Source: Escherichia phage phi92
DNA: 64,000 bases
Strand: one strand, 5' to 3'
Sequence record: NC_023693.1
Each line of letters opens with the position of its first letter. The first letter of the stretch is position 1. Below are positions 17,319-56,058 of the stretch, piece by piece. The translations under genes were made by a program, and so were the position numbers. The notes under the pieces were generated by a model. That model searched no databases and had not been told where the DNA came from. It was given only the letters and a program-made list of their open reading frames with translations.

Positions 17319-17588
17319 CTAAAATGATTCGTTTGTCTCCATAATATATTGCATTTCCAAATCTTCCATATGTTTCTTAAATTGGTAAACAATTTCCGAT
17401 GGGGAAATATCTATATCAAAAAGTTCTTTTGTACCAGAATAAAATCTAATACCATCAACAATAAGACCACCATAATAATCCCAATCACTTTCTCGTGAGA
17501 AAGGATTAGGTTCTTCATAATAGTAATCTACTTCAACAATAATAGGTTCTTTATTATCTTGTTTATACTCAAAATCAAAAGTGTTCAT
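17319..17588 (-). CDS. hypothetical protein
   Basis: 89 aa ORF in operon context. Confidence 0.35.
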   Translation of the reverse strand: MNTFDFEYKQDNKEPIIVEVDYYYEEPNPFSRESDWDYYGGLIVDGIRFYSGTKELFDIDISPSEIVYQFKKHMEDLEMQYIMETNESF

Positions 17589-18532
17589 TATAAATCCTCG
17601 ATAAGCAGTCTGCGGGTTTCATTTAAATCATCAATATTGTAGTTATCTCTTACATACTTAGCAAGAGCCAATCCTTTCTCAATACAAACATCAGGAGATT
17701 CGATTAAGTATTCTACAATATCTTTCCACTCTTTAACTGAATCAGCAAAGAAGATTAGATCTTTAAATTCTTCAGTATAGTAGTTCTCTCGTGGTGAACA
17801 AACGAGTGGCAAACCTTTAGCACCAGCTTCAAGAATTTTTAAATTACTTTTGGCATTATTAAAATGATTATTTACTAATGGAGCTATGGAGATTTGATGA
17901 CCATCGTATGCTTCCATATAACACTCATAAGGACGAATACCTTCATAAACACAACCTGGTTGAATATCTTCTTTAATTTGCAACCATTGAGCACTACTTA
18001 ACTCTTCGTGATCTCTACGAAATCCACATAAAGTTAAATCTTTACCAAAATCAGGAAGAATTGCTAAATCATGTTTATGTGTTTCACTTCCCGCCCAAAC
18101 TAGTGGACTTTTAGAATAACGGTCTTTAGTAAGAACAAACTGTCCTTCATCAAAAGGTAATCCGTTAGGCACAATATGTACATTATCATTGTATTGGCTT
18201 AATTCAACCTTTAATGCCGGAGTTGTTGTGGTTACAAGATCGCTTCTTTCAAGGAACCATTTTAGGTCATCTCGGATTTGATTTTCAAATAGTCCTTCAA
18301 GCATATGCCCTTCAGGAATAATTAAAGAATCATCCAGATCCATTACCAATTTAAACCCAATTTGTTTAAGAGCCAGGAAACCTGGCTTTCCACGTGTTGG
18401 TACTCCATTGAACACAAAAATATTATGCTTAGGATTAATGGTCAGTTTGCGTTTATATGGCAAAATGATTCTATGAAAATCACATACACTATACTTTTCA
18501 TTTCCGCGTGTGTCAAGAATAATATTAGGCAT
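17588..18532 (-). CDS. glycosyltransferase-like protein (paralog 1)
   Basis: 314 aa; clear paralog of the next gene (shared HRIILPY/HRIVMPF, VWAGSETH/IWAGGASH, ILEAGAKGLP); E-x7-E-like C-terminal motif of GT-B enzymes. Confidence 0.5.
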   Translation of the reverse strand: MPNIILDTRGNEKYSVCDFHRIILPYKRKLTINPKHNIFVFNGVPTRGKPGFLALKQIGFKLVMDLDDSLIIPEGHMLEGLFENQIRDDLKWFLERSDLVTTTTPALKVELSQYNDNVHIVPNGLPFDEGQFVLTKDRYSKSPLVWAGSETHKHDLAILPDFGKDLTLCGFRRDHEELSSAQWLQIKEDIQPGCVYEGIRPYECYMEAYDGHQISIAPLVNNHFNNAKSNLKILEAGAKGLPLVCSPRENYYTEEFKDLIFFADSVKEWKDIVEYLIESPDVCIEKGLALAKYVRDNYNIDDLNETRRLLIEDL

Positions 18533-18543
18533 ATAACTCCTTG

Positions 18544-19557
18544 TTAAAGACTTTCAATAACTTGACGACGCAGTTCATTGGCATCTGCAAGATTATAATT
18601 AAGACGAACGTGTTCTGCAAGCATCATACCACGATCTTCTGTGTATCTAGGATTCCTAATTAGCTTGACAACTTCATAGTGCCAAGATGCTTTAGAGTCT
18701 GCATAGATAACAGCCTTTGCATCTACCGGATTGAAGTACGGCAGCACAGGAGAACAGATAATAGGAAGACCCTTTGCACCTGCTTCCAAAATCTTCAAAT
18801 TGCTTTTACAGTTGTTGAAGTCATTATCTACCAGAGGAGCAATTGCAATACTATGACCGTCATACACAGACATATACTCACCTAAATTTTTAATAGCTGG
18901 TTTATACTGTGCATTTGGAATTTTACGTTTTATTTTAACCCACTCCGCAGTAGTTAGATACTGACTATTATTTCCAACAGGTGCAGAAGGATACACTTCA
19001 TACCCTGCAATTGTCAATAGTGTATCATCAAATGTATTAGCTACAAGAGATAAATCAGGCTCATGGCTTGCTCCTCCAGCCCAGATAATAGGTGTGTCAG
19101 AACTACGGTCTTTTGTCAAAGTAAATTGACCTTCGTCGTAAGGTAGTGCGTTTCTAATTACGACAACATTACGATTTAAATGACGAATTTTGTAAGCTAG
19201 GTATTCTGTTGTTACAGTAACAACATCTGCTAACTTAACCATCTCTACAATAGTCTTTGAATGATTAGTAAATACGCCAGCCATATAATGTTCAGGATTA
19301 AGTGAATAAAAGTCATCTAAATCAACAATAATCTTAACACCTTGTGCCTTCAGGCGTTTAACCTCGTCTGCTCCACGAGAATACACTCTATTAAAAACTA
19401 AAACGTCTTTCTTAGGTTTAAATGTATTTCCAGCAAATGGCATTACAATACGATGGTAATCACAACCACTGCCTAACTTATTATCACACTTAAGTACAGG
19501 AGTATTAGGATTTACCATATTTTTGAGCCTCCTCATAAGAGATAAAAGTTTTACCAT
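18544..19557 (-). CDS. glycosyltransferase-like protein (paralog 2)
   Basis: 337 aa; paralog of 17588-18532. Confidence 0.5.
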   Translation of the reverse strand: MVKLLSLMRRLKNMVNPNTPVLKCDNKLGSGCDYHRIVMPFAGNTFKPKKDVLVFNRVYSRGADEVKRLKAQGVKIIVDLDDFYSLNPEHYMAGVFTNHSKTIVEMVKLADVVTVTTEYLAYKIRHLNRNVVVIRNALPYDEGQFTLTKDRSSDTPIIWAGGASHEPDLSLVANTFDDTLLTIAGYEVYPSAPVGNNSQYLTTAEWVKIKRKIPNAQYKPAIKNLGEYMSVYDGHSIAIAPLVDNDFNNCKSNLKILEAGAKGLPIICSPVLPYFNPVDAKAVIYADSKASWHYEVVKLIRNPRYTEDRGMMLAEHVRLNYNLADANELRRQVIESL

Positions 19558-20191
19558 TGCGAAGATCCTCCAGAGATTGTTTATATTGTTCCCAGTTTAC
19601 ACCAATCCCCTGTTCTTTCTCTTCTTTTGACAGATTCGCAAAAGGTAAAGGATTGTCTCCAAACACATCATCAGGATGGATAAACGCCATAATTCGAATA
19701 GGACATGGCACGCCTTGAATACCTCGGTTCAAACCTGCCAGTGGAACGCGATGAATCCACTCTGCATCTTCATATCCATAACCGTGGGTGTATGAGCGGA
19801 AATAGCCAGCTTTCTCAATAACTGCACGGGAATACATACCAAACTGGCACATACCTAGTTCCCAAATAACCACTTCCCCTTCAATACCTTTTACTTTATC
19901 TTTAAAGTATTCAGGCATACCAAAGAAATCCCAACCATTTTCCTTCGCCTGTTTTACAAAATATGTTTCCCAACCTGGAACAACAGGATAACAATCATCA
20001 TCAAAAATAAACCAGTAGTCATACCCTTCATCATAAAACTTTTTCATCAGTTCATTACGGGCATATGCAACACCTTTTCGTTCACGATCATACTGTACAA
20101 CAAAAGTAGCATTAGGATCAGTTACAAGATAATCTTTAAGAGGACGCTTACCTACAGTAATAACACCAACACCAATTTTTGTATTTTCCAA
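19505..20191 (-). CDS. GT-A-like glycosyltransferase
   Basis: 228 aa; DxD-type acidic motif YWFIFDDDCYP after a Rossmann-like N-terminus. Confidence 0.45.
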   Translation of the reverse strand: MENTKIGVGVITVGKRPLKDYLVTDPNATFVVQYDRERKGVAYARNELMKKFYDEGYDYWFIFDDDCYPVVPGWETYFVKQAKENGWDFFGMPEYFKDKVKGIEGEVVIWELGMCQFGMYSRAVIEKAGYFRSYTHGYGYEDAEWIHRVPLAGLNRGIQGVPCPIRIMAFIHPDDVFGDNPLPFANLSKEEKEQGIGVNWEQYKQSLEDLRNGKTFISYEEAQKYGKS

Positions 20192-20200
20192 AATAACTCC

Positions 20201-20764
20201 TTAAATAATTTTATTCATGTCTTGACAATGTAAAAGGTGTGAAACAGCTTTTCTAGGATCATCATTACCTAAACGGTATGTGTGAAATAAATATAACCCA
20301 CGTAGTAAACCTAGCCTTTTATTGTTAGCGTGCAATGCTTTAGAGAAAATTATATCAAACTGTATTGATCTTTCCTCAAAAGGAATTTCATTCCACAGAC
20401 TCTTACGAAAGAGAAGAAAGAATCCTGCTAAGATAGCATCTGTAGGTACTTCCTCTATTGAGTTTCCCCATTCTAGATGTGCTCTTTTTGCAATCTCAAT
20501 GTGGTGTAATATATTCGGATCTTCACTTCTTTCATTATTAAATAATTGATATGTTGATCCCAATCTGTTACAAGATGCACCAAGAACATCAAAATCAGGA
20601 TTTGAACGGACAATTGATTCCAGCCAAGCAGGTTGTTCTGGAAGAAGAAACATTGTATCAATGTCTCTTAGGCAAATCCAACTATCTTCTGGTAAGACAC
20701 TTATTGTGTCATTGATACCTTTTCCAATATCTCCAGAAAGATAGGGAGTTATGTGAAATATCAT
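20201..20764 (-). CDS. hypothetical protein (possible fourth glycosyltransferase-like gene)
   Basis: 187 aa ORF contiguous with the glycosyltransferase operon; acidic motif ICLRDIDTMF. Confidence 0.35.
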   Translation of the reverse strand: MIFHITPYLSGDIGKGINDTISVLPEDSWICLRDIDTMFLLPEQPAWLESIVRSNPDFDVLGASCNRLGSTYQLFNNERSEDPNILHHIEIAKRAHLEWGNSIEEVPTDAILAGFFLLFRKSLWNEIPFEERSIQFDIIFSKALHANNKRLGLLRGLYLFHTYRLGNDDPRKAVSHLLHCQDMNKII

Positions 20765-21512: not shown

Positions 21513-22022
21513 TTAGCGATAGAATTGATGTTCTTTGTAGCGGTACACTAGAACCATATCTTTTTCCCAGTGTGCTCTTATTGTAGATTTTTTAAAGTAT
21601 AATGCTCCTTTTGTAATATCTAATGCAATTCGTAATTCTGGAAAATGCGTATCGAGATAAAGTAGACGTTCTGCTATAGCCTTAGCTTCCTTCCACTTAT
21701 CACGTTCCATAACGTTGAATGTCTTTGTGTAAGAGAATTGTCCTTTTTGAAACAAAACTTCTTTTATAGTATCAGGGAAATATGAATCTCTAGCCCTATT
21801 CAATACTACATTACCAACAGCAGACATACCGCGCTTTCCTTGATTACGACTTTCTGCATAGATTGCACAAGCTAATAGATTTTCTTTACTATCACGCTTT
21901 GTACACTTGTGAACTACTTTAGCAGTTTTTACGTTTGCAGCTTCGGCTTGCGCCACAACAGGTGTAAATGTAAAAGCAGTTAAGGATAGTAACGCAATTG
22001 CGACAAAGGTTTTTATTGACAA
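21513..22022 (-). CDS. secreted cell-wall hydrolase (SleB/CwlJ-like)
   Basis: N-terminal signal peptide MSIKTFVAIALLSLTAFTFTPVVAQA; core AIYAESRNQG...VGNVVLNRA resembles the SleB-type hydrolase domain. Confidence 0.5.
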   Translation of the reverse strand: MSIKTFVAIALLSLTAFTFTPVVAQAEAANVKTAKVVHKCTKRDSKENLLACAIYAESRNQGKRGMSAVGNVVLNRARDSYFPDTIKEVLFQKGQFSYTKTFNVMERDKWKEAKAIAERLLYLDTHFPELRIALDITKGALYFKKSTIRAHWEKDMVLVYRYKEHQFYR

Positions 22023-22114
22023 ACTTGCCTCCTATTTTGTTAAACGAACTTTTATTGTAACACAGAAGAGGCTGTTTTGCAAGTGGAGGGGGATTATCCC
22101 CCTCTTACACTCTG

Positions 22115-22742: not shown

Positions 22743-22758
22743 ATGCGCCCCGAAGGGC
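22743..22758 (-). terminator. terminator-like hairpin
   Basis: GCGCCC-CGAA-GGGCGC immediately downstream of the TerD-like gene. Confidence 0.35.
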
Positions 22759-22769
22759 GCTATGATTTA

Positions 22770-23366
22770 TTACTCGAACCAATCGTCGCCAGCGCCAAAC
22801 GCTTTAACTACATCGTAAATATCAAGCCCAGCTTTACCCACACCATACGCTTTCAGTTTCCATTCGCTATCTTCTCGCACCAGGGAGGCAACGTGGCAAA
22901 TGGTGTTACCTGCAAGTTCTGGAGCCAAGAAGTCAAAGTCCAGCAGTTCAACATTACGTTCATCATCGAAGATTTTAAGGAAACCTTCGGTAGCGTGACC
23001 AAGGCGTTTCTTACCCGTTTCGTCATCAATAGTAATTACGAATGCAATTTCCTGTGCTTCAGCAGAGATATTATCCAGTGTAACATCAATCTGCTCCATT
23101 TGTCCTACACCGTCACGAACATCTTCACCTGCAAAAGTAGAACGTTCAGGATCAAATTTCTGTGCGTAGCATACCAGGTGGCGAGGAGACAACAGTTCCG
23201 GCAGACCAGATGCATTGTGTCGGCAAATCAGAGCACTAACATCCAGATCCAGTTTTTCGTTAGATTTCCAAGAGAATTCCAGACGAATGCGTTTCAGTGC
23301 TGGTGCGATCTTTTTCAGGGAAACTTTTTCGCTAGAACCTTTTTTCAGGGAAATTTTCTGAGTCAT
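22770..23366 (-). CDS. TerD-domain stress-response protein
   Basis: 198 aa; N-terminus ISLKKGSSEKVSLKK and overall pattern typical of the TerD family. Confidence 0.65.
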   Translation of the reverse strand: MTQKISLKKGSSEKVSLKKIAPALKRIRLEFSWKSNEKLDLDVSALICRHNASGLPELLSPRHLVCYAQKFDPERSTFAGEDVRDGVGQMEQIDVTLDNISAEAQEIAFVITIDDETGKKRLGHATEGFLKIFDDERNVELLDFDFLAPELAGNTICHVASLVREDSEWKLKAYGVGKAGLDIYDVVKAFGAGDDWFE

Positions 23367-23438
23367 AATTTATTATCTCCTTTGTTGTTAATTTACGTTG
23401 TCTATTTTACTAATCTTTTCTACAAAGTCAAGCGTTTT

Positions 23439-24233
23439 TTACGCTTTTGCTCCGAATTTTTTAACCCACTCACCAAACTCTTCGGATAACAGTTTATCGT
23501 AAAGTTCTTCGTCAGACAAGGACAAATCTGCAATACCGATAAAATCAACATTATCGTATTCTTTTGCCAAGTCTTTCAGGAATTTAAAGTTTGCATTACC
23601 TACACCAACCATAAACCAGTAAACAGGAGTGTTGCGGTGTTTGTTCAGCAAACTACGTACTGCTGAAGTATCCATGTTCTCCCCGTCAGTTTGGAAGAAA
23701 ATCATTGCAGGAGTACGATCAACTTGTGCATCAGTATCTACAACCTGTTCTACAACAGTACGTGTAACTTCTACACGTTCTTTTTTACCAGTTAGTTTAG
23801 CAAGGAAACCCTTAGCCGGAACTTCTTCATACTCAACGACTTCGCGTGTAATATTTTTCATAGGTACACTACCGAAGTATGTATCATAGATCTCTTGCAT
23901 TACTGGGGCATAAGCTGTACCACCATTGATGCAAACATTAGACATACAAGAGCCGACATAATCATCATATACATCAGCCGTTGCGGGAGGCAGTTCAAAA
24001 GAAGAACTATTGAAAGCCCACATGTCAATCTGTGCATTATCATCAAATTTCATACCAAACGGCAGCAGCTTACCTACAAAATCACTAACAGTGCCATCAC
24101 GATACAGCTCACACATACTACCCGAAATATCTAAGGCGCTACCGACACGAAGAACAACATCGTTAATCTTTTTCTTACGCAGAGATACGGTAAGAGTTTC
24201 TTGACGTTTTTTAAGACTGATTTTATTGGACAT
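23439..24233 (-). CDS. vWA-domain protein with TerD-like N-terminus
   Basis: ISLKKRQETLTVSLRKK N-terminus; MIDAS-like DISGSM, GGTAY and FFQTDGENMD blocks of a von Willebrand A domain. Confidence 0.55.
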   Translation of the reverse strand: MSNKISLKKRQETLTVSLRKKKINDVVLRVGSALDISGSMCELYRDGTVSDFVGKLLPFGMKFDDNAQIDMWAFNSSSFELPPATADVYDDYVGSCMSNVCINGGTAYAPVMQEIYDTYFGSVPMKNITREVVEYEEVPAKGFLAKLTGKKERVEVTRTVVEQVVDTDAQVDRTPAMIFFQTDGENMDTSAVRSLLNKHRNTPVYWFMVGVGNANFKFLKDLAKEYDNVDFIGIADLSLSDEELYDKLLSEEFGEWVKKFGAKA

Positions 24234-24234
24234 A

Positions 24235-24504
24235 TTATTTCTCCTTTCTGAGTGTAATGTTAGTAACTTCTAAATCCACTTCTACCATTTCTGTATCATA
24301 TGAAATACAGCTAAGTTGACCTCTTTGTGAACCGTTCAGACACATTGCTTGGTTTGTATTAACCTTAATAAACACTAAGTTTCTGAACGTATCTAAACCA
24401 GCATCTTGATAGGCAACATAATATACAAATGTATCACCTGCGTCAAGTTCTCCAAAACATTTAGGTTCATCTGATTCGTCGTCTTTGATATTAAATTTAA
24501 GCAC
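24235..24504 (-). CDS. hypothetical protein
   Basis: 89 aa ORF. Confidence 0.35.
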   Translation of the reverse strand: MLKFNIKDDESDEPKCFGELDAGDTFVYYVAYQDAGLDTFRNLVFIKVNTNQAMCLNGSQRGQLSCISYDTEMVEVDLEVTNITLRKEK

Positions 24505-25060
24505 TATCTTCTCCTTTACCTACTTTCAAGCCTAAATAGAAAGCCTCTCTAGTGATTTTTTGCAACTCGTTTAAAGAGATAGTTACAACTAAATCATCTT
24601 CAATTTCTAGTTTTGAGTCTTCTTCTGTCTCAATGCAAGTATTATGCACTTTGTGGTAAGGATTGTCAACACGTTTAAATTTATTATTTTCAGTGCTGAA
24701 GAAGCAATCTGGATCTTCTTCCCCATCACCCCAACCCTGGTTAGGATCTTCTTCAGATCTTTCTGTTGGGATCTCACCTGTAAAGTGTTCTTCTAATACC
24801 AGAGCAATCCCATCTCCAAGATCGGAAGAGAACATCAAATTACAAACTTCTTCCCAAGGCATAGACCACTTAAATCTTTTACGATTGCCATGTTTATCTT
24901 CTTCGTTAGAGAAAACACTACCATAGCTATCATAATTCCCATACATCTCTTCGACAACCTTACCACCTTTCAAAAGAAATAGGTAGCAAGGAGAGCCATC
25001 GAAAGAGGTAGAGAGAGCAGCATTACCAGACTCTTTGCACAAGAAACTAAAACACCCCAT
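24497..25060 (-). CDS. hypothetical protein
   Basis: 187 aa ORF. Confidence 0.4.
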   Translation of the reverse strand: MGCFSFLCKESGNAALSTSFDGSPCYLFLLKGGKVVEEMYGNYDSYGSVFSNEEDKHGNRKRFKWSMPWEEVCNLMFSSDLGDGIALVLEEHFTGEIPTERSEEDPNQGWGDGEEDPDCFFSTENNKFKRVDNPYHKVHNTCIETEEDSKLEIEDDLVVTISLNELQKITREAFYLGLKVGKGEDSA

Positions 25061-25260
25061 TATACACCAGCCTTAAGATCAATTAAAGCCAAAGTTGTTT
25101 CAGAGTGTGTTTGCTCGTCTACAGGCGCAGTCATATGATAATACAAAAAATCTTCGGCATCATACCAATCTGATTCTTGACCTTGTTTCCAACCATCAAT
25201 GAAAGCATCTTCCATAATGGTTTGCAATTCTTCACGAGTTAAGTGAATATCTTTACTCAT
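25060..25260 (-). CDS. hypothetical protein
   Basis: 66 aa acidic ORF. Confidence 0.35.
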   Translation of the reverse strand: MSKDIHLTREELQTIMEDAFIDGWKQGQESDWYDAEDFLYYHMTAPVDEQTHSETTLALIDLKAGV

Positions 25261-25493
25261 TACACATTCTCCTCTTTTACCAATTCCATCGTTGAATTGT
25301 CAAAACCATCTTTAGAAGAATAGGTATAGACAGAACGTAGTTCTCGCAGGACAGTGAATACATTAGGATCATCTAACCAAGCATCCTGGAGGAGAACATA
25401 ACGATCTTCATTGTCATACTGAACAGCAATCATAGAACCAGACAGTTTGTAAATTTTAATATTCATAATATATTTCTCCTTAAAGTAGACCAC
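25260..25493 (-). CDS. hypothetical protein
   Basis: 77 aa ORF. Confidence 0.35.
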   Translation of the reverse strand: MVYFKEKYIMNIKIYKLSGSMIAVQYDNEDRYVLLQDAWLDDPNVFTVLRELRSVYTYSSKDGFDNSTMELVKEENV

Positions 25494-26583
25494 GTTTAAC
25501 AGTTTGAATCATACCATCTTCAAGAGATTGCACTTCTTGAATGTAATCAATACGGGCAGCACGGGCTTCAGTGTTGATTCGGTTAGTTTCTTCCAACATT
25601 TTAACTAAGTTTTCTTGATCACGACGTAATGTTTCAATATCCAATACTTGACGATTAGCAAGTTGTGTAGCTTCAATTTGGTTTTGTGCAGCCAGATCAC
25701 TACCCATTGCAATAGCAGCATTAAATTCATTCAGTACATTGTTCTGTGTATCGGCTGCTTTCTTCTGGCGTAGACTTTCAATATACATAGAAAAGTTTGC
25801 AGAGTAAGCAGGGATAACATTATTCACAATATTACGGGCTGATCGCATCAAACTTGCAGATACTTTCTGCATACTTTGTACACGTGGCCCCATCTGAACA
25901 CACAGTAAGCGTAAGGCTTTCAGGTCTGCAATACGAATTTCAAGCAGATCCATAGTATCACGAGTACGCTGACGCTCTTCTACGTCATTTTCAGGCAGTG
26001 TATTAAGGCGAATTTCTTCTTTTTCATAAGTAGCTGTTAGAAGCTCTATATCTCTGTTTAAGCTAAGAGCATATTTTGCAATAGCCTCTTCTAAACGTTG
26101 CAGATATCGTAAAGAATCTTCTTCTTTTTTCAAGTCTGTTTGGAGTGTCTTTACCAAACCTTCAATACGGTTATTAATGGTGTCAAATTCTCCAAACAAA
26201 TCTTCTTTCATACCTAAAACTTTTTTAACTAGTTTACCTAAACCTTTAGATTGTTTAATAGAGTTAGGATCAAGTTGCTTTGCTTGCTTAATAAGTGCAG
26301 TTAAACGTTCACTCATTTCATCTCCCTGAGATGAACGCTGGTGTTTAAGCACTTCAGCATTAAGGTTACGAAGAGTAAGTCCTGCATCAGCACCAACCTG
26401 TTCAATCTCTTCACGCGACATTGGAGGCAGCATTTGTACAGGTCGTGCAACAGCAGGGGCATATACAGGGCTTGCATCCATAGCACTTGGAGCAAACAAA
26501 GACTTACTTTTTTCTGTTGTTGCCGTGAATACACTCATTTCAGACGGTTTGCTTTTTACGGCACTGATAAAAGGACTGGACAT
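25480..26583 (-). CDS. TelA-like (toxic anion resistance family) protein
   Basis: 367 aa, long helical coiled-coil-like sequence resembling the TelA/KlaA family. Confidence 0.55.
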   Translation of the reverse strand: MSSPFISAVKSKPSEMSVFTATTEKSKSLFAPSAMDASPVYAPAVARPVQMLPPMSREEIEQVGADAGLTLRNLNAEVLKHQRSSQGDEMSERLTALIKQAKQLDPNSIKQSKGLGKLVKKVLGMKEDLFGEFDTINNRIEGLVKTLQTDLKKEEDSLRYLQRLEEAIAKYALSLNRDIELLTATYEKEEIRLNTLPENDVEERQRTRDTMDLLEIRIADLKALRLLCVQMGPRVQSMQKVSASLMRSARNIVNNVIPAYSANFSMYIESLRQKKAADTQNNVLNEFNAAIAMGSDLAAQNQIEATQLANRQVLDIETLRRDQENLVKMLEETNRINTEARAARIDYIQEVQSLEDGMIQTVKRGLL

Positions 26584-26651
26584 TCAATTTCCTCCATATT
26601 CTTTAGTAAATGGTGATACCTCTGTACCACCATCATAACACAAATTAAGTA

Positions 26652-27521
26652 TTAAACAAACATATCTAAATAATTTGTAGTAATAAATGCTCCATCTGCT
26701 TCCAGATTAACATAACCAGTAGCATTAGTGGTTAAGAAATCCAGATCGAAGGACTCTTTAACACCCCGTACCTCAACACGAGAGATATCGAATACAGGTA
26801 GTGTAACAGCCTCTTCGTGCAATACCGTACCTTTGTAGGTTGCCTTAATGATAAACTTGATATTACCTGTTCCAGCATCATATAAAACACTTTCAAACCC
26901 TTTGAGAGTATATTTATCACCAGAGGTGAAGTGCAAAGTTGCTTTGTTTACAGTACGGTTCTTACGAGGAGTTCCTTTCACACGTTTATGATCACTACGT
27001 CTTTTGCATTTAGGAATGAATACAAACGATACACTCTCAAGAAAGGTATCAACATCAAGGATTTTAATATCCTCTGTTGCAGCAAATTTTGAAGTAGTTG
27101 CATCAAAATGCTTTTCCCTGCGATCATACATAAAGATATCAAACCGATCTTCTAAATCAAACCGATCTTCTAAATCAAACAAATTATGCAGTTTAATTTC
27201 AGAATGCTTGCACATTGCAGCAACCTTAAACTCTTCAAAACGTGGGTGTTCTACAAGTTCTTCAAGTTTTACACCAAAGACAGTATATTGTTTCGAAGTT
27301 TTTTCTGGTGTTGGCATTACAGAAGCATAATCACCGATTGCGCTCTTAAAGCAAAATTGTTCTTGACCTGTATTTTTACCAACGAATTTACAGTATTCGT
27401 CATCGTGCATACTTTCCTGGGTAGTACCAACAAACTCAAAACCATCTTTATTCTTCTCAAGGATTTCTTGATTAAAGATCCAACCTTCCAGGCGATATAC
27501 TTTACCAACTTCTAGTTTCAT
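26652..27521 (-). CDS. hypothetical protein
   Basis: 289 aa ORF; contains an exact 18-bp in-frame tandem duplication (EDRFDL twice). Confidence 0.4.
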   Translation of the reverse strand: MKLEVGKVYRLEGWIFNQEILEKNKDGFEFVGTTQESMHDDEYCKFVGKNTGQEQFCFKSAIGDYASVMPTPEKTSKQYTVFGVKLEELVEHPRFEEFKVAAMCKHSEIKLHNLFDLEDRFDLEDRFDIFMYDRREKHFDATTSKFAATEDIKILDVDTFLESVSFVFIPKCKRRSDHKRVKGTPRKNRTVNKATLHFTSGDKYTLKGFESVLYDAGTGNIKFIIKATYKGTVLHEEAVTLPVFDISRVEVRGVKESFDLDFLTTNATGYVNLEADGAFITTNYLDMFV

Positions 27522-27556
27522 CTGTTTCTCCTTCTTATTTAATCTGTATTAAATTA

Positions 27557-28162
27557 TTAACGACGACGTGAGCTACTAAAACTACGTTTCGACGAAGAAT
27601 AACTTTTCGAAGACTTACTATAAGAGCTAATAGGGCTTGAGTAAGACTTACGAGCAGAGTAATCACTATTCACTTTCGTTGTTGATGGGCGTGAATACGT
27701 TTGTACACTTTGCTGCTTAATTGTGTTTTGTTTAGTGGTTGTATATGTATTTCCTTGTTTATCATAAAAACTATGCTTTTGTGTTGTATATGCTTTACTG
27801 TTAGTTGTAGGAGCAGCGTTGTTATTAATAATTGTTGTGTTGCTACCACCATCTCTATAACCGCCACCGCCACTATTACCACTCAACATATGACCAAGAA
27901 GCATACCTGTAGCAAACTCACCTACACCAGAAGAACCACTGCCGCCTCCTTGCACAACAACTGTTGAAGGTTGTGCAGGTGCTGCTTGAACAACTTGAGG
28001 TGCAGGCTGATTTACATATTGTTCATCTACCATCTGATTTGGTGTTTGTTGGTAACGTTGATTTTGTACATTTTCAGAATCATCACAACCTACCAGCAAT
28101 GCACTACCTAAAACAACTGCAACAATAAAAGATTTAATGTTTTTCATTTGTAACCCTCTCAT
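27557..28162 (-). CDS. lipoprotein with low-complexity Q/S/T/Y-rich region
   Basis: Signal peptide with lipobox LLVGC; G-rich and S/Y/K-rich low-complexity C-terminus. Confidence 0.45.
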   Translation of the reverse strand: MRGLQMKNIKSFIVAVVLGSALLVGCDDSENVQNQRYQQTPNQMVDEQYVNQPAPQVVQAAPAQPSTVVVQGGGSGSSGVGEFATGMLLGHMLSGNSGGGGYRDGGSNTTIINNNAAPTTNSKAYTTQKHSFYDKQGNTYTTTKQNTIKQQSVQTYSRPSTTKVNSDYSARKSYSSPISSYSKSSKSYSSSKRSFSSSRRR

Positions 28163-28340
28163 TTAAAGTCTCAACACAATTTTTAAAATCCCTAGAGAAA
28201 CAATACATCTGTTCTCCGTTCCTGTTGATAGTAATTGTATGGTTATCAATATATGTTGTCAAGATAAAAATCAAACAAAACAACCCTAGAGCAAAACAAA
28301 TATTTTCAAACAGAATCCAAAGAACACGTAAAACCACCAT
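28134..28340 (-). CDS. small membrane protein
   Basis: 68 aa, hydrophobic segment; overlaps start of downstream gene. Confidence 0.3.
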   Translation of the reverse strand: MVVLRVLWILFENICFALGLFCLIFILTTYIDNHTITINRNGEQMYCFSRDFKNCVETLNERVTNEKH

Positions 28341-28379
28341 CAGATCACCTCAACAAAGCCCCCGAAGGGGCTTAATGAA

Positions 28380-29357
28380 TTAAGCAACAGTCTGGTCTTC
28401 TTTTTCAGGGAAGATTAAACTTGCAACAACACCCAACCCAAGAGTACCTAACACAATATACATACTGATCGTCGGATCAATGTGTGCTGGCAGGAAACTG
28501 GCTTTTGCGTGCAGAGTTTCTGCAAACGGGTGATACATCAGTTTTACACCCACAAACACCAGGACTACGATAACTGCTTTCTCCAGATGAACCAAATATT
28601 TCAGTGCAACACTAAGGACAAAGAACAGAGCACGTAGACCTAAGATTGCACAGAGCATCGAAGAGAACACTAGCAGAGGTTCTTGTGTCACTGCAATCAC
28701 TGCTGGAACAGAGTCTACTGCAAAGATTACGTCAACCATTTCCATTACAAACACACAAACCAGAGCCGGAGTTGCTACACGAACACCATTTTTGATTGTG
28801 AAGAACTTCTCACCATCCATCTGATCAGATACAGGGAACAGCTTACGAACAATGCGAGTAGCCCAGTGTTTAGAGTAATCAACTTCTGCATCATTATCTC
28901 CAGCGAATACCATTTTAGCCGCACAGAAAAGGATGACAGCACCGAAGAAGATATTAACATACCAGCCCAAACTCAACAAGTAAGTACCTACTGCTACAAA
29001 CACACCTCGGAAGACAATCGCACCTGCAATACCCCAAAGTAGAATCTTGTGCTGCAAGTGTGTGCTTTTAATACCAAAACTTGCGAATACTGCTACAAAT
29101 ACTACTAAGTTATCTACAGAAAGAGATTTCTCCAACACATACCCACTCAAGAACAAGCTCGCAAAATCAGCACCGTGTTGGAAGTATACAAAACCATAGT
29201 AGGCTAATGATACCCCAATCCAGAAAATTGACCAGCCAATTGCAGATTTAAATGAAATTTCTTTGTTTTCTCTGTGTCCAAAGAAATCAATACAAATCGA
29301 CAAGACTAAAATACCCACTAAAACAACCACATCAATAATTGGGAAACCCAGTTGCAT
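28380..29357 (-). CDS. TerC-family integral membrane protein
   Basis: 325 aa with multiple hydrophobic helices and conserved acidic residues in helices, as in TerC. Confidence 0.6.
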   Translation of the reverse strand: MQLGFPIIDVVVLVGILVLSICIDFFGHRENKEISFKSAIGWSIFWIGVSLAYYGFVYFQHGADFASLFLSGYVLEKSLSVDNLVVFVAVFASFGIKSTHLQHKILLWGIAGAIVFRGVFVAVGTYLLSLGWYVNIFFGAVILFCAAKMVFAGDNDAEVDYSKHWATRIVRKLFPVSDQMDGEKFFTIKNGVRVATPALVCVFVMEMVDVIFAVDSVPAVIAVTQEPLLVFSSMLCAILGLRALFFVLSVALKYLVHLEKAVIVVLVFVGVKLMYHPFAETLHAKASFLPAHIDPTISMYIVLGTLGLGVVASLIFPEKEDQTVA

Positions 29358-29375
29358 TCTTTTCTCCTCTTTAAT

Positions 29376-29396
29376 GCGGAGGACAATCCTCCGCTC
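29376..29396 (-). promoter_or_regulatory. hairpin in leader of TerC-like gene
   Basis: GCGGAGG-ACAAT-CCTCCGC located between the - strand RBS and the upstream gene. Confidence 0.3.
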
Positions 29397-29434
29397 TATG
29401 TCGTATACTATAAACTGTTTTTAAAGAAAGTCAA

Positions 29435-29683
29435 CTAGTTCAGTTCTGTAATTTTAAGTTTATCTTCTTTGTTAATGATAGGGAAAGCTACAGCATCACC
29501 TACATCATCAATAAAGCAAATAGCAAGACCACCTTCCACTTTGCTAACCTGACCATTAAAGGCGTGATACGGGGCAGGAACAATATCTCCATCTTCAAGG
29601 AGAATAGCCTCATAAACCTTACCAATAGTACAATCACGAGTGTTTTTAAATTTTTCAAGCACTTCAACATTTACTTTACGCAT
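29435..29683 (-). CDS. hypothetical protein
   Basis: 82 aa ORF. Confidence 0.35.
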   Translation of the reverse strand: MRKVNVEVLEKFKNTRDCTIGKVYEAILLEDGDIVPAPYHAFNGQVSKVEGGLAICFIDDVGDAVAFPIINKEDKLKITELN

Positions 29684-29697
29684 ATAAAGATCCTCTC

Positions 29698-29904
29698 TTA
29701 TTTGTTAGATTGAAAGATACCACGAAGTACCGCAAGAATGAACGTCACACAGACTACACTCCAAAACGTTACAGGAACATGATGCCAGTCTAAACCGATA
29801 ATGTCAATCATATAGTTGTATGCTAAAAGCAGTAGCCAACTAGGGATTAACACAATCAAGAACACAACAATAAAACAACCTAATACTGCTAAAACACCTG
29901 CCAT
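29698..29904 (-). CDS. small membrane protein
   Basis: 68 aa with two hydrophobic helices. Confidence 0.35.
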   Translation of the reverse strand: MAGVLAVLGCFIVVFLIVLIPSWLLLLAYNYMIDIIGLDWHHVPVTFWSVVCVTFILAVLRGIFQSNK

Positions 29905-29913
29905 ACTTTCTCC

Positions 29914-30630
29914 TTATTTCAGTTTGTAAACAATTACATTTAAACCTTTGTTCACTAGAGTTTCTTCGATCATAAGTTTTACAATATTCCAAGAACCTCC
30001 AGCCAAACCACAACCAAGCATTGGTAAACCTACAATTTTACCGCCTGAAGATACAACATCGTCTCCCATACTATCTAACGCATTGTAGATAGCTTCATAA
30101 TTCAGGTCACGCTTACCTTCCTCACGACGACTATAACCATATTGTCCATATAAATTATAAATTGTCAAATTGTTTTCTGTATACTTAGTAAACGTACCTA
30201 ATTTTTTATAATCACCACGTTTAGTGGCACAATCTGCTTTAAACGCACCAGGCCACTTGCTTTTAATTTTTGGTGCAATACCACTACCCATAGTGCAAAA
30301 ACAGTTACAGCAGTGTGCTATAGCGTCTATATCGCCTCTCTCGGCTGCTGCTAAAAGATCACCGTATACCTCAATGATACCTGCTGGATAACTTGTTACA
30401 ATTTCATCTTCCCAGTACATTTGCTCTACACCACCGATCAGTGCAAAGTTTTGTGTAATGCGATCATCAATATAATTAAGACCTGAAACATACACAGCAT
30501 ATTCATCCTGTGCTGTAATACCTTGTACACGAATTCTTAAGACACCATCTTTATCTGTTGCTACACGCCCAAAATCTTTTTCTGTAATATTGGTGATAGG
30601 ATCTCCGAAAGTCGTCACTTTATTAGACAT
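29914..30630 (-). CDS. macro-domain (ADP-ribose binding/hydrolase) protein
   Basis: GDIDAIAHCCNCFCTMGSGIAPKI and GLPMLGCGLAGGSW match macro-domain signature blocks; start set to ATG (MSNKV) with RBS aaagggga, 2 nt after the upstream stop. Confidence 0.5.
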   Translation of the reverse strand: MSNKVTTFGDPITNITEKDFGRVATDKDGVLRIRVQGITAQDEYAVYVSGLNYIDDRITQNFALIGGVEQMYWEDEIVTSYPAGIIEVYGDLLAAAERGDIDAIAHCCNCFCTMGSGIAPKIKSKWPGAFKADCATKRGDYKKLGTFTKYTENNLTIYNLYGQYGYSRREEGKRDLNYEAIYNALDSMGDDVVSSGGKIVGLPMLGCGLAGGSWNIVKLMIEETLVNKGLNVIVYKLK

Positions 30631-31480
30631 AATAATCCCCTTTAACATTAGATTTGTTGATAATGTTGCTTTCAAAAAATTGACGCAGGAAATCAAAGTT
30701 CTCTTTGTATTTTTCAATATTATTGTAACCTTCTGCAAGGCAACCAAAGAACAGTTGTTCTACATAATACAAAGGAAGTTGTGAAAGTGCAATTTTAAAA
30801 TCAACTTCGCTTTGACTCATTAGATACTTAATAGGACGAACCAAACATTTAGCATCAGTTTCTTGCTTAATCATTTTAATAAAAGCTGCCAGGTTATTGA
30901 TATAGTTGAAGTTAAGTGCAGCTTCGGTGTTGGCTTCTGTACCTTCATACTTTGCAAAGTACAGGAAAAACGTATCGTTTTCAACACCTTCTTTGTCTAA
31001 AATTTCAATAAGTTTTTCTTCGTGTGTACCTGTAATATTAACATCATCAATGAAAATCAGATTTTTATCGCCCCAAAAATCACGATTGATAGAGAAAGTA
31101 TCACCATCGATCAAAGCCTTACGATCTTCTTTGCTAAGAAATCCATAATCATTGATATAGCTCACTTTACGATGAACGATATCCCACTCTACTGCTTTAC
31201 CTCCTTTGATAGAGATTAGGTAGTTGAGGTGATCTACAAAATGTTCAGATAACACTGTAGCTGCATTTTTAACATAGTTATATGGAGATGGAATAACAAC
31301 AAAACTTTCATTTACCAGTCGTTCTTCATATTTAGAAAAGAAACTTTCAGCCAGAATGCGTCCCATTCTTTTTGCTGCCTGGTTGCTGCCAAACTTTAGT
31401 TTGGAATAATCTGCAATGTTAAATTTTGCTTCCTTCAGGTTAGTAAAAGTATTAGCAAAATGTTGAATTTGATTACGCAT
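30623..31480 (-). CDS. phosphoribosyltransferase-fold protein
   Basis: PRPP-binding-type motif NLIFIDDVNITGTHEE. Confidence 0.5.
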   Translation of the reverse strand: MRNQIQHFANTFTNLKEAKFNIADYSKLKFGSNQAAKRMGRILAESFFSKYEERLVNESFVVIPSPYNYVKNAATVLSEHFVDHLNYLISIKGGKAVEWDIVHRKVSYINDYGFLSKEDRKALIDGDTFSINRDFWGDKNLIFIDDVNITGTHEEKLIEILDKEGVENDTFFLYFAKYEGTEANTEAALNFNYINNLAAFIKMIKQETDAKCLVRPIKYLMSQSEVDFKIALSQLPLYYVEQLFFGCLAEGYNNIEKYKENFDFLRQFFESNIINKSNVKGDYYV

Positions 31481-32129
31481 TAATAAGTTCCTCTTTTTTA
31501 AGTTTAGCCAACAAGTCTTCTGGATTAATAATATGACAGAACTTCATCCCTATGTCAACAGCTTTTCCATCATAAATCAAACTATCTCCAACGTGTAAAA
31601 TCTCCTCTGGTGCGAGATCAAACGTTACCATTTCATCAAAAGAGAGTTTAAAAAACCTAGGATCTGGTTTACACAAGCAAAACTCATCAGAAAAATGCAT
31701 AAAGTCAAATGGTAATTTTGTCAAGCCAGAATATACAGCTAAGAAACTACCAGGTACAAAATTAGTATTGCTCTTAATACTCAAAGAGTAGGTTGAACTT
31801 AGCTCTTCCAACTTCTTGCAAAGTTCAGGATTCAAGGTTGGAGGATGTTTTATAAACATTGCTAAACAGTCTCTTTTTAACCCATCCACTTTATCAAGAT
31901 CAATGTTCAAACGAGTAGAAAGTGTTACCCAAGCATCCTTAGACGTTCCACAAATGCCTTTTTCTGCTTTTAAATCCAAGAGAGTTTTTACCTCTTTATA
32001 TACGGTAGCTGCTTCTACCTCAGAACAAGAGGCATACTCGGCAATAACCTTGTTGCGCTCTTCTGCATACAAAGGGTTAGCAGTAATAAGAGTATTCCAT
32101 ACATCAAAAGAAATATGCTTAACAGTCAT
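31473..32129 (-). CDS. HAD-superfamily hydrolase-like protein
   Basis: Motif I-like FDVWNTL (second Asp replaced), motif II SIKSNT, motif IV GDSLIYDGK; start set to ATG (MTVKHISF) after RBS ggagga. Confidence 0.5.
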   Translation of the reverse strand: MTVKHISFDVWNTLITANPLYAEERNKVIAEYASCSEVEAATVYKEVKTLLDLKAEKGICGTSKDAWVTLSTRLNIDLDKVDGLKRDCLAMFIKHPPTLNPELCKKLEELSSTYSLSIKSNTNFVPGSFLAVYSGLTKLPFDFMHFSDEFCLCKPDPRFFKLSFDEMVTFDLAPEEILHVGDSLIYDGKAVDIGMKFCHIINPEDLLAKLKKEELINA

Positions 32130-32131
32130 TT

Positions 32132-32287
32132 TTAATCCTCCGTCCAAAAGAATATCATCTGCTTAATTTTATTGATTTCTTGATGTAGTAACTTTCCAGC
32201 ATGTGATTGATCTTTAATATTGACAGCAAGAATTTCAAGTTCCGTTAGTTTTTCTTGGATAGCTTTATATTCATCATCTGTAAGCAT
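32132..32287 (-). CDS. small hypothetical protein (51 aa)
   Basis: ATG with RBS aagggga; in-frame stop overlaps RBS of the HAD gene; below track size cut-off. Confidence 0.35.
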   Translation of the reverse strand: MLTDDEYKAIQEKLTELEILAVNIKDQSHAGKLLHQEINKIKQMIFFWTED

Positions 32288-32298
32288 TTTCTTCCCCT

Positions 32299-32502
32299 TT
32301 AGAATGGTAATCTTTGTATGTCACTTATCCCCACACCAAGAAGTCTAGCAATATCCTTATCTAAAAGCAACTCTTTTTGTTCTAAAATGTTAATCAGATC
32401 TCCTAATACTTCTTTAATGTCACGATCATTTTTAGCAACGTGACCACCTGCCGTATCAACTTTATCTTTAAAAACAAAGTAATGATCCATAATACCCTCC
32501 AT
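32299..32502 (-). CDS. hypothetical protein
   Basis: 67 aa ORF. Confidence 0.35.
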   Translation of the reverse strand: MEGIMDHYFVFKDKVDTAGGHVAKNDRDIKEVLGDLINILEQKELLLDKDIARLLGVGISDIQRLPF

Positions 32503-32509
32503 ATAAATA

Positions 32510-32528
32510 AAGGAGGCTTTCGCCTCCT
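32510..32528 (-). terminator. terminator hairpin
   Basis: GGAGGC-TTTC-GCCTCC with flanking A/T runs, downstream of the ATPase gene. Confidence 0.45.
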
Positions 32529-32536
32529 TTTATCAC

Positions 32537-33697
32537 TTAGTAAGAACGAGCACCAAACACATACTCTGTGTAGTTTTTACGTTCTTTGTTTTTAATAACA
32601 ACTTCAATGTTGTTGCCTTTATCATCGGTGAACACAAAGTGATAACCGTCACCACCCATTGTACGGATGTGTTTTTCATCATACGTCAGCAAGATACGGT
32701 CTACACCCCAGTAGTAGTCACCTTCTTCATCTTTGTCTTCTACTGTAACGACCCCTTCCATTTCAGGAAGATGTTCTTCTCCTAGCTTATGGTCTACAGC
32801 TACAACATAACGATTACCGCTAAACAAACCCTGTGCTGTCATACCGTCAATATCGGTATCTGCCGAAACATCTCCTGTACGATCTACACCGTTGACTTTC
32901 AGAAGTTTAACTTCTTTTGCAGCATAGCGGTGTTCAGTAATACTGATACCCATTAATGCAAGTGCATCAGAGAATTTGTCATTAGGGTAACGGTTAAGTT
33001 CTTCTACTAATGACTGAACAATATCAAAGTTCAAGTCCACGGAAAGATTATAAAGCGTTTCAAAATCTGGTAAAAAGGCTTTGTTCTCCAGATTTTTAGC
33101 CAGATAGTCATCCATAGTAGCTTTAGGTAGTTTCTTATAGCTAAAGCTGTAGAAAATACGGCTAGGACGATTACGCAAAAATTCTGATACATAACCATCG
33201 TTTTTAGTCAATACAAACAGCTTGTCGTAGCCACCTACACCATCCAGCAGGGTAAGCAAGCCATCCTGTGCATCTTTTTCAGCATACAGTTTATCAAATT
33301 CATCGATCATAATCATCACAGGTTGTGTGATTTTAGACATAAAATTGATAAAGCCTTCGCCATTAAAAGCACTACCGATAGGAATAGTAGGAATACCCAT
33401 TTCACGAAGAGCAGAAGACAGCATTTTAGCTTGCAAAGTTTTACCGCTACCCTTCGTACCCTCAAGGAGAACACCTGTGTTTTTACCTTTGCGGCTAAGG
33501 AACGTCTTGATAATACGTTCTGATTTATCATCAGTATCACCGTATGTTACTGAAGGGACTTCCATATCGTTTTTAGGATACAGGAAGAACTCACCACTTT
33601 GAGTAACACCTACACCAAAAGTTCCTGCTGGAATTTCTTCAATATCTGTACCAGACTTCTGACGCAGGAAGATTTGATTGCCGAATACTGTAAACAT
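32537..33697 (-). CDS. P-loop ATPase (paralog of 48994-50121)
   Basis: Walker A GTKGSGKT, Walker B IMIDEFDKL; long collinear similarity to the + strand ATPase. Confidence 0.5.
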   Translation of the reverse strand: MFTVFGNQIFLRQKSGTDIEEIPAGTFGVGVTQSGEFFLYPKNDMEVPSVTYGDTDDKSERIIKTFLSRKGKNTGVLLEGTKGSGKTLQAKMLSSALREMGIPTIPIGSAFNGEGFINFMSKITQPVMIMIDEFDKLYAEKDAQDGLLTLLDGVGGYDKLFVLTKNDGYVSEFLRNRPSRIFYSFSYKKLPKATMDDYLAKNLENKAFLPDFETLYNLSVDLNFDIVQSLVEELNRYPNDKFSDALALMGISITEHRYAAKEVKLLKVNGVDRTGDVSADTDIDGMTAQGLFSGNRYVVAVDHKLGEEHLPEMEGVVTVEDKDEEGDYYWGVDRILLTYDEKHIRTMGGDGYHFVFTDDKGNNIEVVIKNKERKNYTEYVFGARSY

Positions 33698-47413: not shown

Positions 47414-47473
47414 ATCTAACCTCTTTTGTTACGATGCACACAGAGTACCAGAAATTAATTTCAGATCAAGTAT

Positions 47474-47502
47474 TGACATACTGTTTTATTGTGCTAATCT
47501 TA
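47474..47502 (+). promoter_or_regulatory. sigma70-like promoter in divergent intergenic region
   Basis: TTGACA at 47474-47479 followed by AT-rich -10 candidates; region 47414-47522 separates divergent gene blocks. Confidence 0.35.
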
Positions 47503-47522
47503 ATGCATACACAAATGAGAGG

Positions 47523-48084
47523 AGATAAACGAATGCAAAACATCGATCTTACTTGGATAGAAGCCAAAGAAGCAATGTTAAAAGGCAAACGCGTTAAACA
47601 TAAATACTTTTGCGAAGGAGAATGGTTTGAAATGCGTAACCGATCCCTTGTAGATGAAAAAGGGAATGACATGGGACAATGGTTCAAAAATGAAATTTGG
47701 CAGGGGACAGGTTGGTCTATAGTTGAAGAGCAGCCTAGCCCAAGCGCACTGTTTAGCCCTATTATGTATCGCGTTATCGGTGCTTTAGTTGTTGATCACG
47801 GGATTGCAGTGGAAAAAGAATGCTGGGAAGAGGTATCTTTTTTCAACCTGGCTTCTTATGCAAAAAGCCATATGCACTTGTTTGAAGAAGGGGATGAATT
47901 TGTTCTTCGTATGCGATATGGCAAAGAATTCAGATTACCACTTGATAACGATGTAGACACTGTTGTAAAATGGTTAGCAGAGCATTACGCTTACGATGCA
48001 ATTTGTGGTCGCAGCTTCGGCAACGAACGCTGGGACATGATTTGTGAAAAATATGATTTTGAGCCGGAGTACGGAGTTTTATAA
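47523..48084 (+). CDS. hypothetical protein (DUF2829-like N-terminus)
   Basis: Start set to ATG (MQNIDLTWIEAKEAMLKGKRV) with RBS gaggag. Confidence 0.4.
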
Positions 48085-53684: not shown

Positions 53685-53693
53685 AAAAGATTG

Positions 53694-53750
53694 TTGACAA
53701 CGTTTGAAAAAGTAGTAATATGTATCACATAGGGCGGCAATAGTGCCGCT
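53694..53750 (+). promoter_or_regulatory. early promoter + conserved leader hairpin (cassette 1)
   Basis: TTGACA, 16 bp, TAATAT, then GGCGGCA-ATAG-TGCCGCT hairpin. Confidence 0.55.
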
Positions 53751-53773
53751 CATAACAGAAGAGAGAAATAATC

Positions 53774-54046
53774 ATGGCATCATATAGCGCATCAATGATC
53801 GTAATGGGTATCACTGGTAAACCTATGTGCGGTGGCGGATCTTTCGCTAATATTAATATTGATGGGCGTTTATCCCTGGATGCAGCGATCACCGTGGCAC
53901 GGGAAACATTTAAAAAAGAATGTAATTTCAATAAGCAAGATTATTTAGGTTTCGCTATTGAAAAAACCGCGCGCTTTGTGGATTATAAAAGCCCGAAAAT
54001 GATCGACACTACACTAAAAGCGCAAGATGTAGCGTTTTTGCTTTAA
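53774..54046 (+). CDS. hypothetical early protein
   Basis: 90 aa ORF downstream of cassette 1. Confidence 0.45.
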   Translation: MASYSASMIVMGITGKPMCGGGSFANINIDGRLSLDAAITVARETFKKECNFNKQDYLGFAIEKTARFVDYKSPKMIDTTLKAQDVAFLL

Positions 54047-54049
54047 GGT

Positions 54050-54109
54050 TTGACACTGAAAAATAATTGGGTAATATATACCACATAAGGCGGGAAATGG
54101 TTTCCCGCC
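54050..54109 (+). promoter_or_regulatory. early promoter + leader hairpin (cassette 2)
   Basis: TTGACA, 16 bp, TAATAT, then GGCGGGAAA-TGG-TTTCCCGCC. Confidence 0.55.
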
Positions 54110-54134
54110 AGGCCATCAAAGAAAGGGTAACACA

Positions 54135-54497: not shown

Positions 54498-54503
54498 AAA
54501 CGG

Positions 54504-54557
54504 TTGACATTGCACTAAAACCTGATAAGCTATCTTAAAGCGGGAATTGTTCCCGCT
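54504..54557 (+). promoter_or_regulatory. early promoter + leader hairpin (cassette 3)
   Basis: TTGACA, 16 bp, TAAGCT, then AGCGGGAA-TTG-TTCCCGCT. Confidence 0.5.
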
Positions 54558-54575
54558 TACATAGGATAAAACTTT

Positions 54576-54722: not shown

Positions 54723-54724
54723 TC

Positions 54725-54985: not shown

Positions 54986-54986
54986 C

Positions 54987-55541: not shown

Positions 55542-55544
55542 GGC

Positions 55545-55600: not shown

Positions 55601-55621
55601 AAAGGTGAAATAAAAAATCAC

Positions 55622-56052: not shown

Positions 56053-56058
56053 AAAGCA

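Follow-up and report, generated by a model that had tools for sequence, protein, structure and literature searches.

The stretch of DNA analysed here, referred to as the window, covers 64,000 nucleotides of the genome of Escherichia phage phi92 (NC_023693.1) and is 98–99% identical to the Justusliebigvirus phages Paula, Nernie, muut and alia, which are E. coli myoviruses of ~146 kb belonging to the Stephanstirmvirinae. For the portions of the genome beyond the window the complete annotation of Nernie (PP925835) was used as a proxy. The window harbours a gene encoding a SleB/CwlJ-like murein hydrolase (Table 1), and the larger setting of this gene is an early/middle replication-metabolism arm. 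Directly upstream a complete Ter-type (tellurite-resistance-like) cluster of membrane-stress and nucleoside-metabolite genes was found (22770..33697, minus strand), and on the other side of the hydrolase gene four glycosyltransferase genes are located (17588..20764, minus strand). The gene is therefore situated between envelope-stress genes and glycosyltransferases and not among the replication genes proper. A first-pass annotation, made from the letters of the window, had placed it inside a replication block, which holds for the wider arm but not for the immediate setting at the junction of the Ter-like cluster and the glycosyltransferases. The same annotation described the gene as not near tail or lysis genes, and this agrees with its position outside the structural module and with a distance of ~48 kb to the spanin genes in Nernie (measured across the join of the linear-record ends).

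Table 1. Features at the hydrolase locus of phage phi92 and the second lytic gene in phage Nernie (positions are those of the window unless another record is named)
Feature	Position	Strand	Basis or remark
SleB/CwlJ-like (Hydrolase_2) murein hydrolase, CDS including stop	21513..22022	-	ORF list, PF07486, PHROG 938
Predicted mature periplasmic enzyme, ~141 aa, 16.6 kDa, pI 9.8	21516..21938	-	
Predicted catalytic Glu57, GAA codon, motif Y-A-E-S-R	21852..21854	-	Alignment with the Glu of SleB Y-G-E-S-R-G
Predicted Sec signal peptide, codons 1–28	21939..22022	-	Hydropathy, homologue alignment, -3/-1 rule
Shine-Dalgarno sequence AGGAGG, 5 nt before TTG	22028..22033	-	Sequence; alignment with Schickermooser and Nernie
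Sigma-70-type promoter-like element, TTGCAA-17 nt-TACAAT, extended -10 TG	22054..22082	-	Consensus scan
GC-rich hairpin GAGGGGGA-TAA-TCCCCCTC, no U-tract, between upstream ORF and -35	22086..22104	-	RNA fold
TerD	22770..23366	-	Ter-type cluster upstream of hydrolase
vWA-TerF-like	23439..24233	-	Ter-type cluster
TelA	25480..26583	-	Ter-type cluster
TerC	28380..29357	-	Ter-type cluster
Macro-domain protein	29914..30747	-	Ter-type cluster
PRTase ComF-like	30623..31480	-	Ter-type cluster
HAD hydrolase	31473..32147	-	Ter-type cluster
AAA ATPase	32537..33697	-	Ter-type cluster
T4 e-type lysozyme, 166 aa, annotated 'hypothetical protein'	Nernie PP925835 58828..59328	+	Outside window

Two further features of the surroundings were observed. 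One of the glycosyltransferases (228 aa, 19505..20191) matches PF20691 TAGT, a TET-associated glycosyltransferase, below the threshold (E=6.6e-5; 23.4 bits, cutoff 27.5), raising the possibility of a DNA sugar modification instead of a modification of surface polysaccharides. A perfect palindromic GC hairpin (GCGCCCCGAAGGGCGC, 22745..22760) with T-rich flanks on both strands lies in the gap separating the TerD gene from the 200-aa ORF that precedes the hydrolase gene, and it looks like a bidirectional intrinsic terminator.

The hydrolase precursor consists of 169 aa (19.5 kDa, pI 9.7) and is read from a TTG codon (22022..22020) to a TAA stop; the first in-frame ATG appears only at codon 66, leaving TTG as the sole sensible start. 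A Pfam search revealed Hydrolase_2 (PF07486) over profile positions 2–100 of 100 (E=6.5e-20, 72.1 bits against a cutoff of 27) and no other Pfam domain in the protein, which also matches PHROG 938 'endolysin' and, in sequence, the SleB catalytic domains 4F55 and 4FET. The profile score, the SleB-type catalytic fold and the conserved catalytic glutamate all place it in the Hydrolase_2 family. A standard homologue search returned only close relatives, with at least 61% identity, and the wider family was collected by an exhaustive search of representatives. Among 169 family members Glu57 and Arg76 are invariant (169/169), and N75, H165, Q95 and F96, all present in the phi92 hydrolase, are conserved in at least 96%. 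With the domain match and these conserved residues, the observation of a SleB/CwlJ-type hydrolase is real and goes far beyond chance. In the predicted mature part the pair Cys40/Cys52 is invariant in the homologue alignment and homologues of other lineages have Cys pairs of their own, a feature typical of periplasmic proteins and one that would fit such a location. More than 20 Justusliebigvirus records contain an annotated gene whose product is 99.4% identical to the hydrolase; some label it 'endolysin', others 'putative cell wall hydrolase' or 'hypothetical protein'.

When compared with SleB of Bacillus (4F55, 4FET), a germination-specific lytic transglycosylase, the phi92 hydrolase shows ~25% identity and reaches 51.9 bits with the SleB equivalog TIGR02869 against a cutoff of 236.5, matching profile positions 81–199 of 201 only. 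The N-terminal PG_binding_1 domain of SleB is absent, and a predicted 28-aa signal peptide and a short linker are found there; the Cys40/Cys52 pair is in turn absent from SleB. Judged by these comparisons the protein is a member of Hydrolase_2 and not an orthologue of SleB. SleB requires muramic-delta-lactam, and E. coli lacks a cortex containing it, so that the phi92 hydrolase must have another substrate specificity. The assignment of Glu57 was made by alignment with the catalytic glutamate of SleB. In SleB the catalytic glutamate is indispensable for the lytic transglycosylase activity (PMC12331253).

The N-terminus of the precursor has the layout of a classical Sec signal, consisting of an n-region MSIK with one basic residue (Lys), an h-region F6–T20 (TFVAIALLSLTAFTFT), a Pro21 hinge and a c-region VVAQAEA. 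The only hydrophobic peak of the protein is located here, at residues 5–20, where the 15-residue Kyte-Doolittle mean is 2.07, compared with at most 0.65 elsewhere. Overlapping AXA sites at 24–28 provide candidate signal peptidase I sites after A24, A26 or A28, of which A28|A29 fits 17 of 20 aligned homologues directly and the other three after a shift of one residue. In all 20 homologues (60–98% identity) a -3/-1 site is kept at reference positions 24–29 despite a variable c-region, and as the N-terminal 30 residues lack cysteine the protein is not a lipoprotein.

Of 168 family representatives, the closest among 1.8 billion clusters, 148 also have an N-terminal hydrophobic segment. Among the distant homologues rV5 shows the signal MKIKIFAIILSAFLSLPVVA|A (...SLPVVA|A), the T5-like phage SP3 ...SFSSQA|S and CB7 ...APALA|K, and in the homologues of PaP1 and KPP10 the N-terminus is transmembrane-like with no obvious cleavage site. 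A signal peptide has been reported for the CB7 homologue (Buttimer et al., PMC7344957), but a paper on related phages states that no signal peptides were found (PMC10698182); the sequence features described here would side with the former. Of the two properties that the first-pass annotation had ascribed to the protein, the SleB/CwlJ-type hydrolase core is thus confirmed by the Pfam match and the conserved Glu57, and the signal peptide is upheld as a predicted signal of the Sec type, with its n-h-c layout and conserved -3/-1 site.

The core of the signal (LLSLTAFTFTP; codons 10–21, 21960..21995, minus strand) is 96% identical where the mature domains are only 70–72% identical, and codons 10–24 are identical even at synonymous sites when the window is compared with the Phapecoctavirus Schickermooser. 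This could be due to recombination, to a constraint on the 5' part of the RNA or to a role of the segment beyond targeting; since ALTFTP-like cores are still present in homologues with 41–50% identity, selection at the protein level is favoured.

The spacer upstream of the hydrolase gene measures 92 nt and contains a hairpin and a promoter-like element. Phapecoctavirus keeps both the Shine-Dalgarno sequence and the TTG start. In Schickermooser the -35 hexamer, the spacing and the TG of the promoter-like element are kept as well, with TATACT as the -10 box, and the gene upstream is a different one (TerD in Schickermooser, the 200-aa ORF in the window). The promoter scan as a whole was not enriched over shuffled sequences (39 matches against 33 expected), and the call at this locus carries weight only because of its conservation across genera. 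Other genes of the replication arm are preceded by similar promoters with a weak -35 box and an extended -10 box, and perfect TTGACA promoters are concentrated in the early region of small ORFs at 53–62 kb. In the intergenic gaps of that region (53685..61857, plus strand) an array of near-consensus sigma-70 promoters (TTGACA-16/17-TAnnnT, with up to 12/12 matches) was observed, and the region is probably the immediate-early one. The hairpin upstream of the hydrolase gene has a folding energy of -18.7 kcal/mol (z = -3.9), none of 200 shuffles being as stable, and an equivalent one with a different loop is found in Schickermooser; it may serve termination, processing or stabilisation.

Evidence on the time of expression besides the promoter match comes from homologues that are only 30–40% identical to the phi92 hydrolase. 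In rV5, where the SleB gene overlaps the first part of rIIA, a sigma-70 promoter annotated by Kropinski is located upstream of the SleB gene in the same orientation, before the gene for a MoxR ATPase. RNA-seq data for gp151 of PAK_P3, comparing 13 with 3.5 min, gave a late/early log2FC of 0.62 (p=0.28), and the lack of a significant difference indicates that the gene is already transcribed at 3.5 min. Together with the promoter-like element these observations point to probable early/middle or constitutive expression in phi92, rather than to late expression coupled to lysis.

For Nernie 76 proteins annotated as hypothetical or structural were scanned with Pfam, revealing a phage lysozyme (PF00959) of the T4 e type (Table 1). 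It matches T4 lysozyme with a phmmer E-value of 2e-52, is ~50% identical to T4-like e genes, keeps the residues corresponding to E11, D20 and T26 of T4 lysozyme and has no signal peptide. In the Pharokka-style annotation of Nernie the SleB-like gene is the sole 'endolysin', and the assumption that it has no counterpart was rejected once this lysozyme had been found. In both Nernie and phiWec179 the lysozyme is labelled 'hypothetical protein' and the label 'endolysin' sits on the SleB-like gene. The lysozyme is present in 54 phage records at 95% identity or more and in 77 at 60–90%, and the SleB-like gene in 53 and 77, respectively; the matching counts show both hydrolases to be fixed features of the Stephanstirmvirinae. 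In agreement with this, the genome announcement of a Phapecoctavirus lists two lytic proteins, one with PF00959 and one with PF07486 (PMC10793346). Spanins of the Rz/Rz1 type adjoin TerL in Nernie and are, like the lysozyme gene, located beyond the window, so that we infer the presence of both in phi92 from genomes that are ~98.7% identical.

An adjacent holin gene was looked for and rejected, as neither of the two genes flanking the hydrolase gene in the window encodes a membrane segment. A genome-wide hydropathy scan revealed scattered small membrane proteins, among them a 145-aa ORF with three transmembrane domains (Nernie 99851..100288) and a 70-aa ORF with two (73227..73439), none of them linked to either hydrolase or to the spanins. 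The most similar to a class I holin is the 145-aa ORF, which lies at ~47440..47877 on the plus strand of the window and on the minus strand of Nernie. The search for holin and spanin genes elsewhere in the genome, suggested at first pass, hence yielded the Rz/Rz1 pair beside TerL but no holin linked to a hydrolase or to the spanins. The SleB-like protein shares the muralytic catalytic domain with endolysins; it is not the sole hydrolase for the lysis stage and its gene is not linked to holin or spanin genes. An endolysin dependent on a signal peptide, one of the two functions that the first-pass annotation had offered, thus appears unlikely beside the e-type lysozyme and the Rz/Rz1 genes of Nernie and the subfamily-wide counts of the lysozyme. 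The other, a periplasmic remodelling enzyme, fits better as a putative function.

The closest counterparts, in the Justusliebigvirus phages Paula, muut, alia and Nernie (97.6–99.4% aa identity) and in Phapecoctavirus phages such as Schickermooser and iGC_PHA_EC001 (~75%), have the same position, promoter and TTG start. The 'SleB' proteins of the Vequintavirinae (rV5 ORF2, CB7_83 of the Pectobacterium phage and CR3_087 of the Cronobacter phage) are of the same size, with the same domain and an N-terminal signal peptide. Their genes are located in the early/middle arm, with a separate endolysin and spanins next to the terminase, as in the relatives of phi92, but the proteins are only 35–40% identical to the phi92 hydrolase. 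In CB7 there is an overlap between the 3' end and a gene with two transmembrane domains, and in rV5 one between the SleB gene and the beginning of rIIA; neither arrangement occurs in phi92. An overlapping holin candidate with two transmembrane domains was found in Certrevirus alone, a hint that the gene may truly serve lysis there. Several Vequintavirinae have been described with a SleB-like gene together with a lysozyme or an M15 peptidase (PMC7344957, PMC12210895, PMC11370258), and expression of the CB7 homologue was reported to be toxic in E. coli (PMC7344957, data not shown in that paper), which would be consistent with an active exported hydrolase.

Outside these subfamilies PaP1 g029, KPP10 ORF143, PAK_P3 gp151, AKFV33 ORF81 and SP3 gp079 all have Hydrolase_2 following an N-terminal export signal or anchor. 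The Pseudomonas (PaP1, KPP10, PAK_P3) and T5-like versions are located among genes of DNA metabolism, beside a validated (PaP1 g072) or annotated (T5-like phages) endolysin; their identity to the phi92 hydrolase is ~30–36%, for the catalytic domain only, and those of Pseudomonas phages look membrane-anchored and not cleaved. For PaP1 the endolysin g072 has been validated by experiment, and g029 is the cell wall hydrolase (PMC3652863); the early-gene region of AKFV33 contains a 'cell wall hydrolase SleB' in addition to a lysozyme and a holin (PMC3326045). The authors of the PAK_P3 study regard gp151 as an auxiliary metabolic gene and a possible reason why cell-wall precursors accumulate in the course of infection (PMC4933390). 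A conserved partner, inhibitor or immunity protein encoded nearby was considered and rejected, since an all-against-all BLASTP of the flanking genes in eight lineages gave nothing in common beyond close relatives. With no flanking gene shared across lineages the hydrolase is a stand-alone module.

Taken together, it is probable that the phi92 protein is a holin-independent, Sec-exported accessory murein hydrolase and not the primary endolysin. Transcription within the early/middle arm would start at a sigma-70-type promoter belonging to the gene itself, a modest one, and translation is probably kept low by the conserved TTG start. The precursor would be exported through the inner membrane by its classical Sec signal peptide with no need for a holin, and signal peptidase I would cut it, probably near Ala24–Ala28, releasing a basic periplasmic enzyme of ~16.6 kDa in which Cys40 and Cys52 probably form a disulphide. 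This enzyme would cut the glycan strands of E. coli murein by means of Glu57, by analogy with SleB probably as a lytic transglycosylase. Given an early/middle promoter of its own, nicking and thinning of the sacculus may occur before, and independently of, the late lysis programme. Primary lysis would be left to the T4 e-type cytoplasmic lysozyme, a holin and the Rz/Rz1 spanins, all encoded elsewhere, and the sacculus would already be nicked or thinned by the time the holin lets the lysozyme out and the spanins act. If the protein is indeed accessory, its purpose may be to weaken the wall in advance and so speed up and complete lysis, an interpretation that we consider plausible but short of probable.

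Export by Sec independently of a holin, as proposed for the phi92 hydrolase, is also the route of Lys44 of the Oenococcus phage fOg44 and of the SAR endolysins P1 Lyz and phage 21 R. These are the only endolysins known in their phages, encoded in lysis cassettes and having other catalytic folds, whereas the relatives of phi92 have a separate cytoplasmic endolysin, and the conserved cleavage site would argue against a SAR domain. A true signal-peptide endolysin similar to Lys44 would be exported by Sec, restrained in the periplasm and unleashed when a holin or pinholin depolarises the membrane, the e-like lysozyme then being redundant or otherwise used. The label 'endolysin' in PHROG and RefSeq would agree with this, as would the toxicity of the CB7 homologue and the class II holin candidate overlapping the gene in Certrevirus, and a redox switch might be formed by the conserved Cys pair, which is close to the catalytic Glu. 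Such a role is nevertheless unlikely, considering the canonical soluble endolysin kept throughout the subfamily, the different gene that is the validated or annotated endolysin in PaP1 and the T5-like phages, the lack of membrane proteins encoded on either side in the window, the sigma-70-type promoter of the gene within the early/middle arm, and the homologue gp151 of PAK_P3, whose expression is not specifically late.

If the N-terminal segment were not cleaved, it would act as a SAR domain or a permanent anchor, tethering the enzyme to the inner membrane and rendering it active only after release. Ala, Ser and Thr abound in the h-region, its degree of conservation relative to the mature domains is unusual for a disposable signal peptide, and the N-termini in PaP1 and KPP10 resemble anchors. 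We nevertheless find this improbable, as every one of the 20 close homologues keeps the -3/-1 site just after the Pro hinge, the homologues in rV5, CB7 and the T5-like phages have textbook cleavable signals, and the hydrophobicity of the h-region equals that of ordinary signal peptides. It is quite improbable, too, that the exported hydrolase has a purpose apart from lysis, in host physiology (release or recycling of muropeptides, enlargement of the cell) or in blocking superinfection by a change of the wall. The treatment of PAK_P3 gp151 as an auxiliary metabolic gene (PMC4933390), the neighbouring envelope-related Ter genes and glycosyltransferases and the overlap with the start of rIIA in rV5 agree with such a role, but they are purely circumstantial and no neighbour is conserved across lineages. 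A virion-associated lysin piercing the wall at DNA injection, conceivable for a murein hydrolase in a contractile-tailed phage, was rejected as highly improbable, since a protein exported by Sec and cleaved in the periplasm cannot enter virion assembly in the cytoplasm, the gene lies outside the structural module, and the structural proteins of CB7 were named in the region CB7_4-36, with CB7_83 not among them.

Much of what is described here is already known: the gene is in GenBank for dozens of near-identical phages, and the SleB-like domain, the signal peptide of the rV5-like homologue and the arrangement with two hydrolases have been published. The finding matters little in itself and has two modest uses. 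The first is a warning for annotation, as pipelines call the SleB-like gene 'endolysin' and the e-type lysozyme 'hypothetical protein', and the mining of these phages for enzybiotics or lysis cassettes would take the wrong gene. The second is the question it raises, namely what leads large virulent phages of at least four unrelated lineages to retain an exported hydrolase of the SleB fold beside a conventional endolysin. Tentatively, and with more doubt than for phi92 itself, SleB-fold hydrolases bearing a signal peptide or anchor might form a distinct class, shared by several lineages of large virulent phages with Gram-negative hosts, whose members act in the periplasm independently of a holin, are expressed early or in the middle of infection and serve to remodel the sacculus beforehand rather than to bring about terminal lysis. 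The proposed class spans the Stephanstirmvirinae, Vequintavirinae, T5-like Demerecviridae, Pakpunavirus, Nankokuvirus and others, in 1146 phage records. If this were true, the routine annotation of exported SleB-fold hydrolases as 'endolysin' would be wrong, and their possible tasks would include the release of muropeptides, enlargement of the cell, priming of the wall for the spanins and the exclusion of superinfecting phages.
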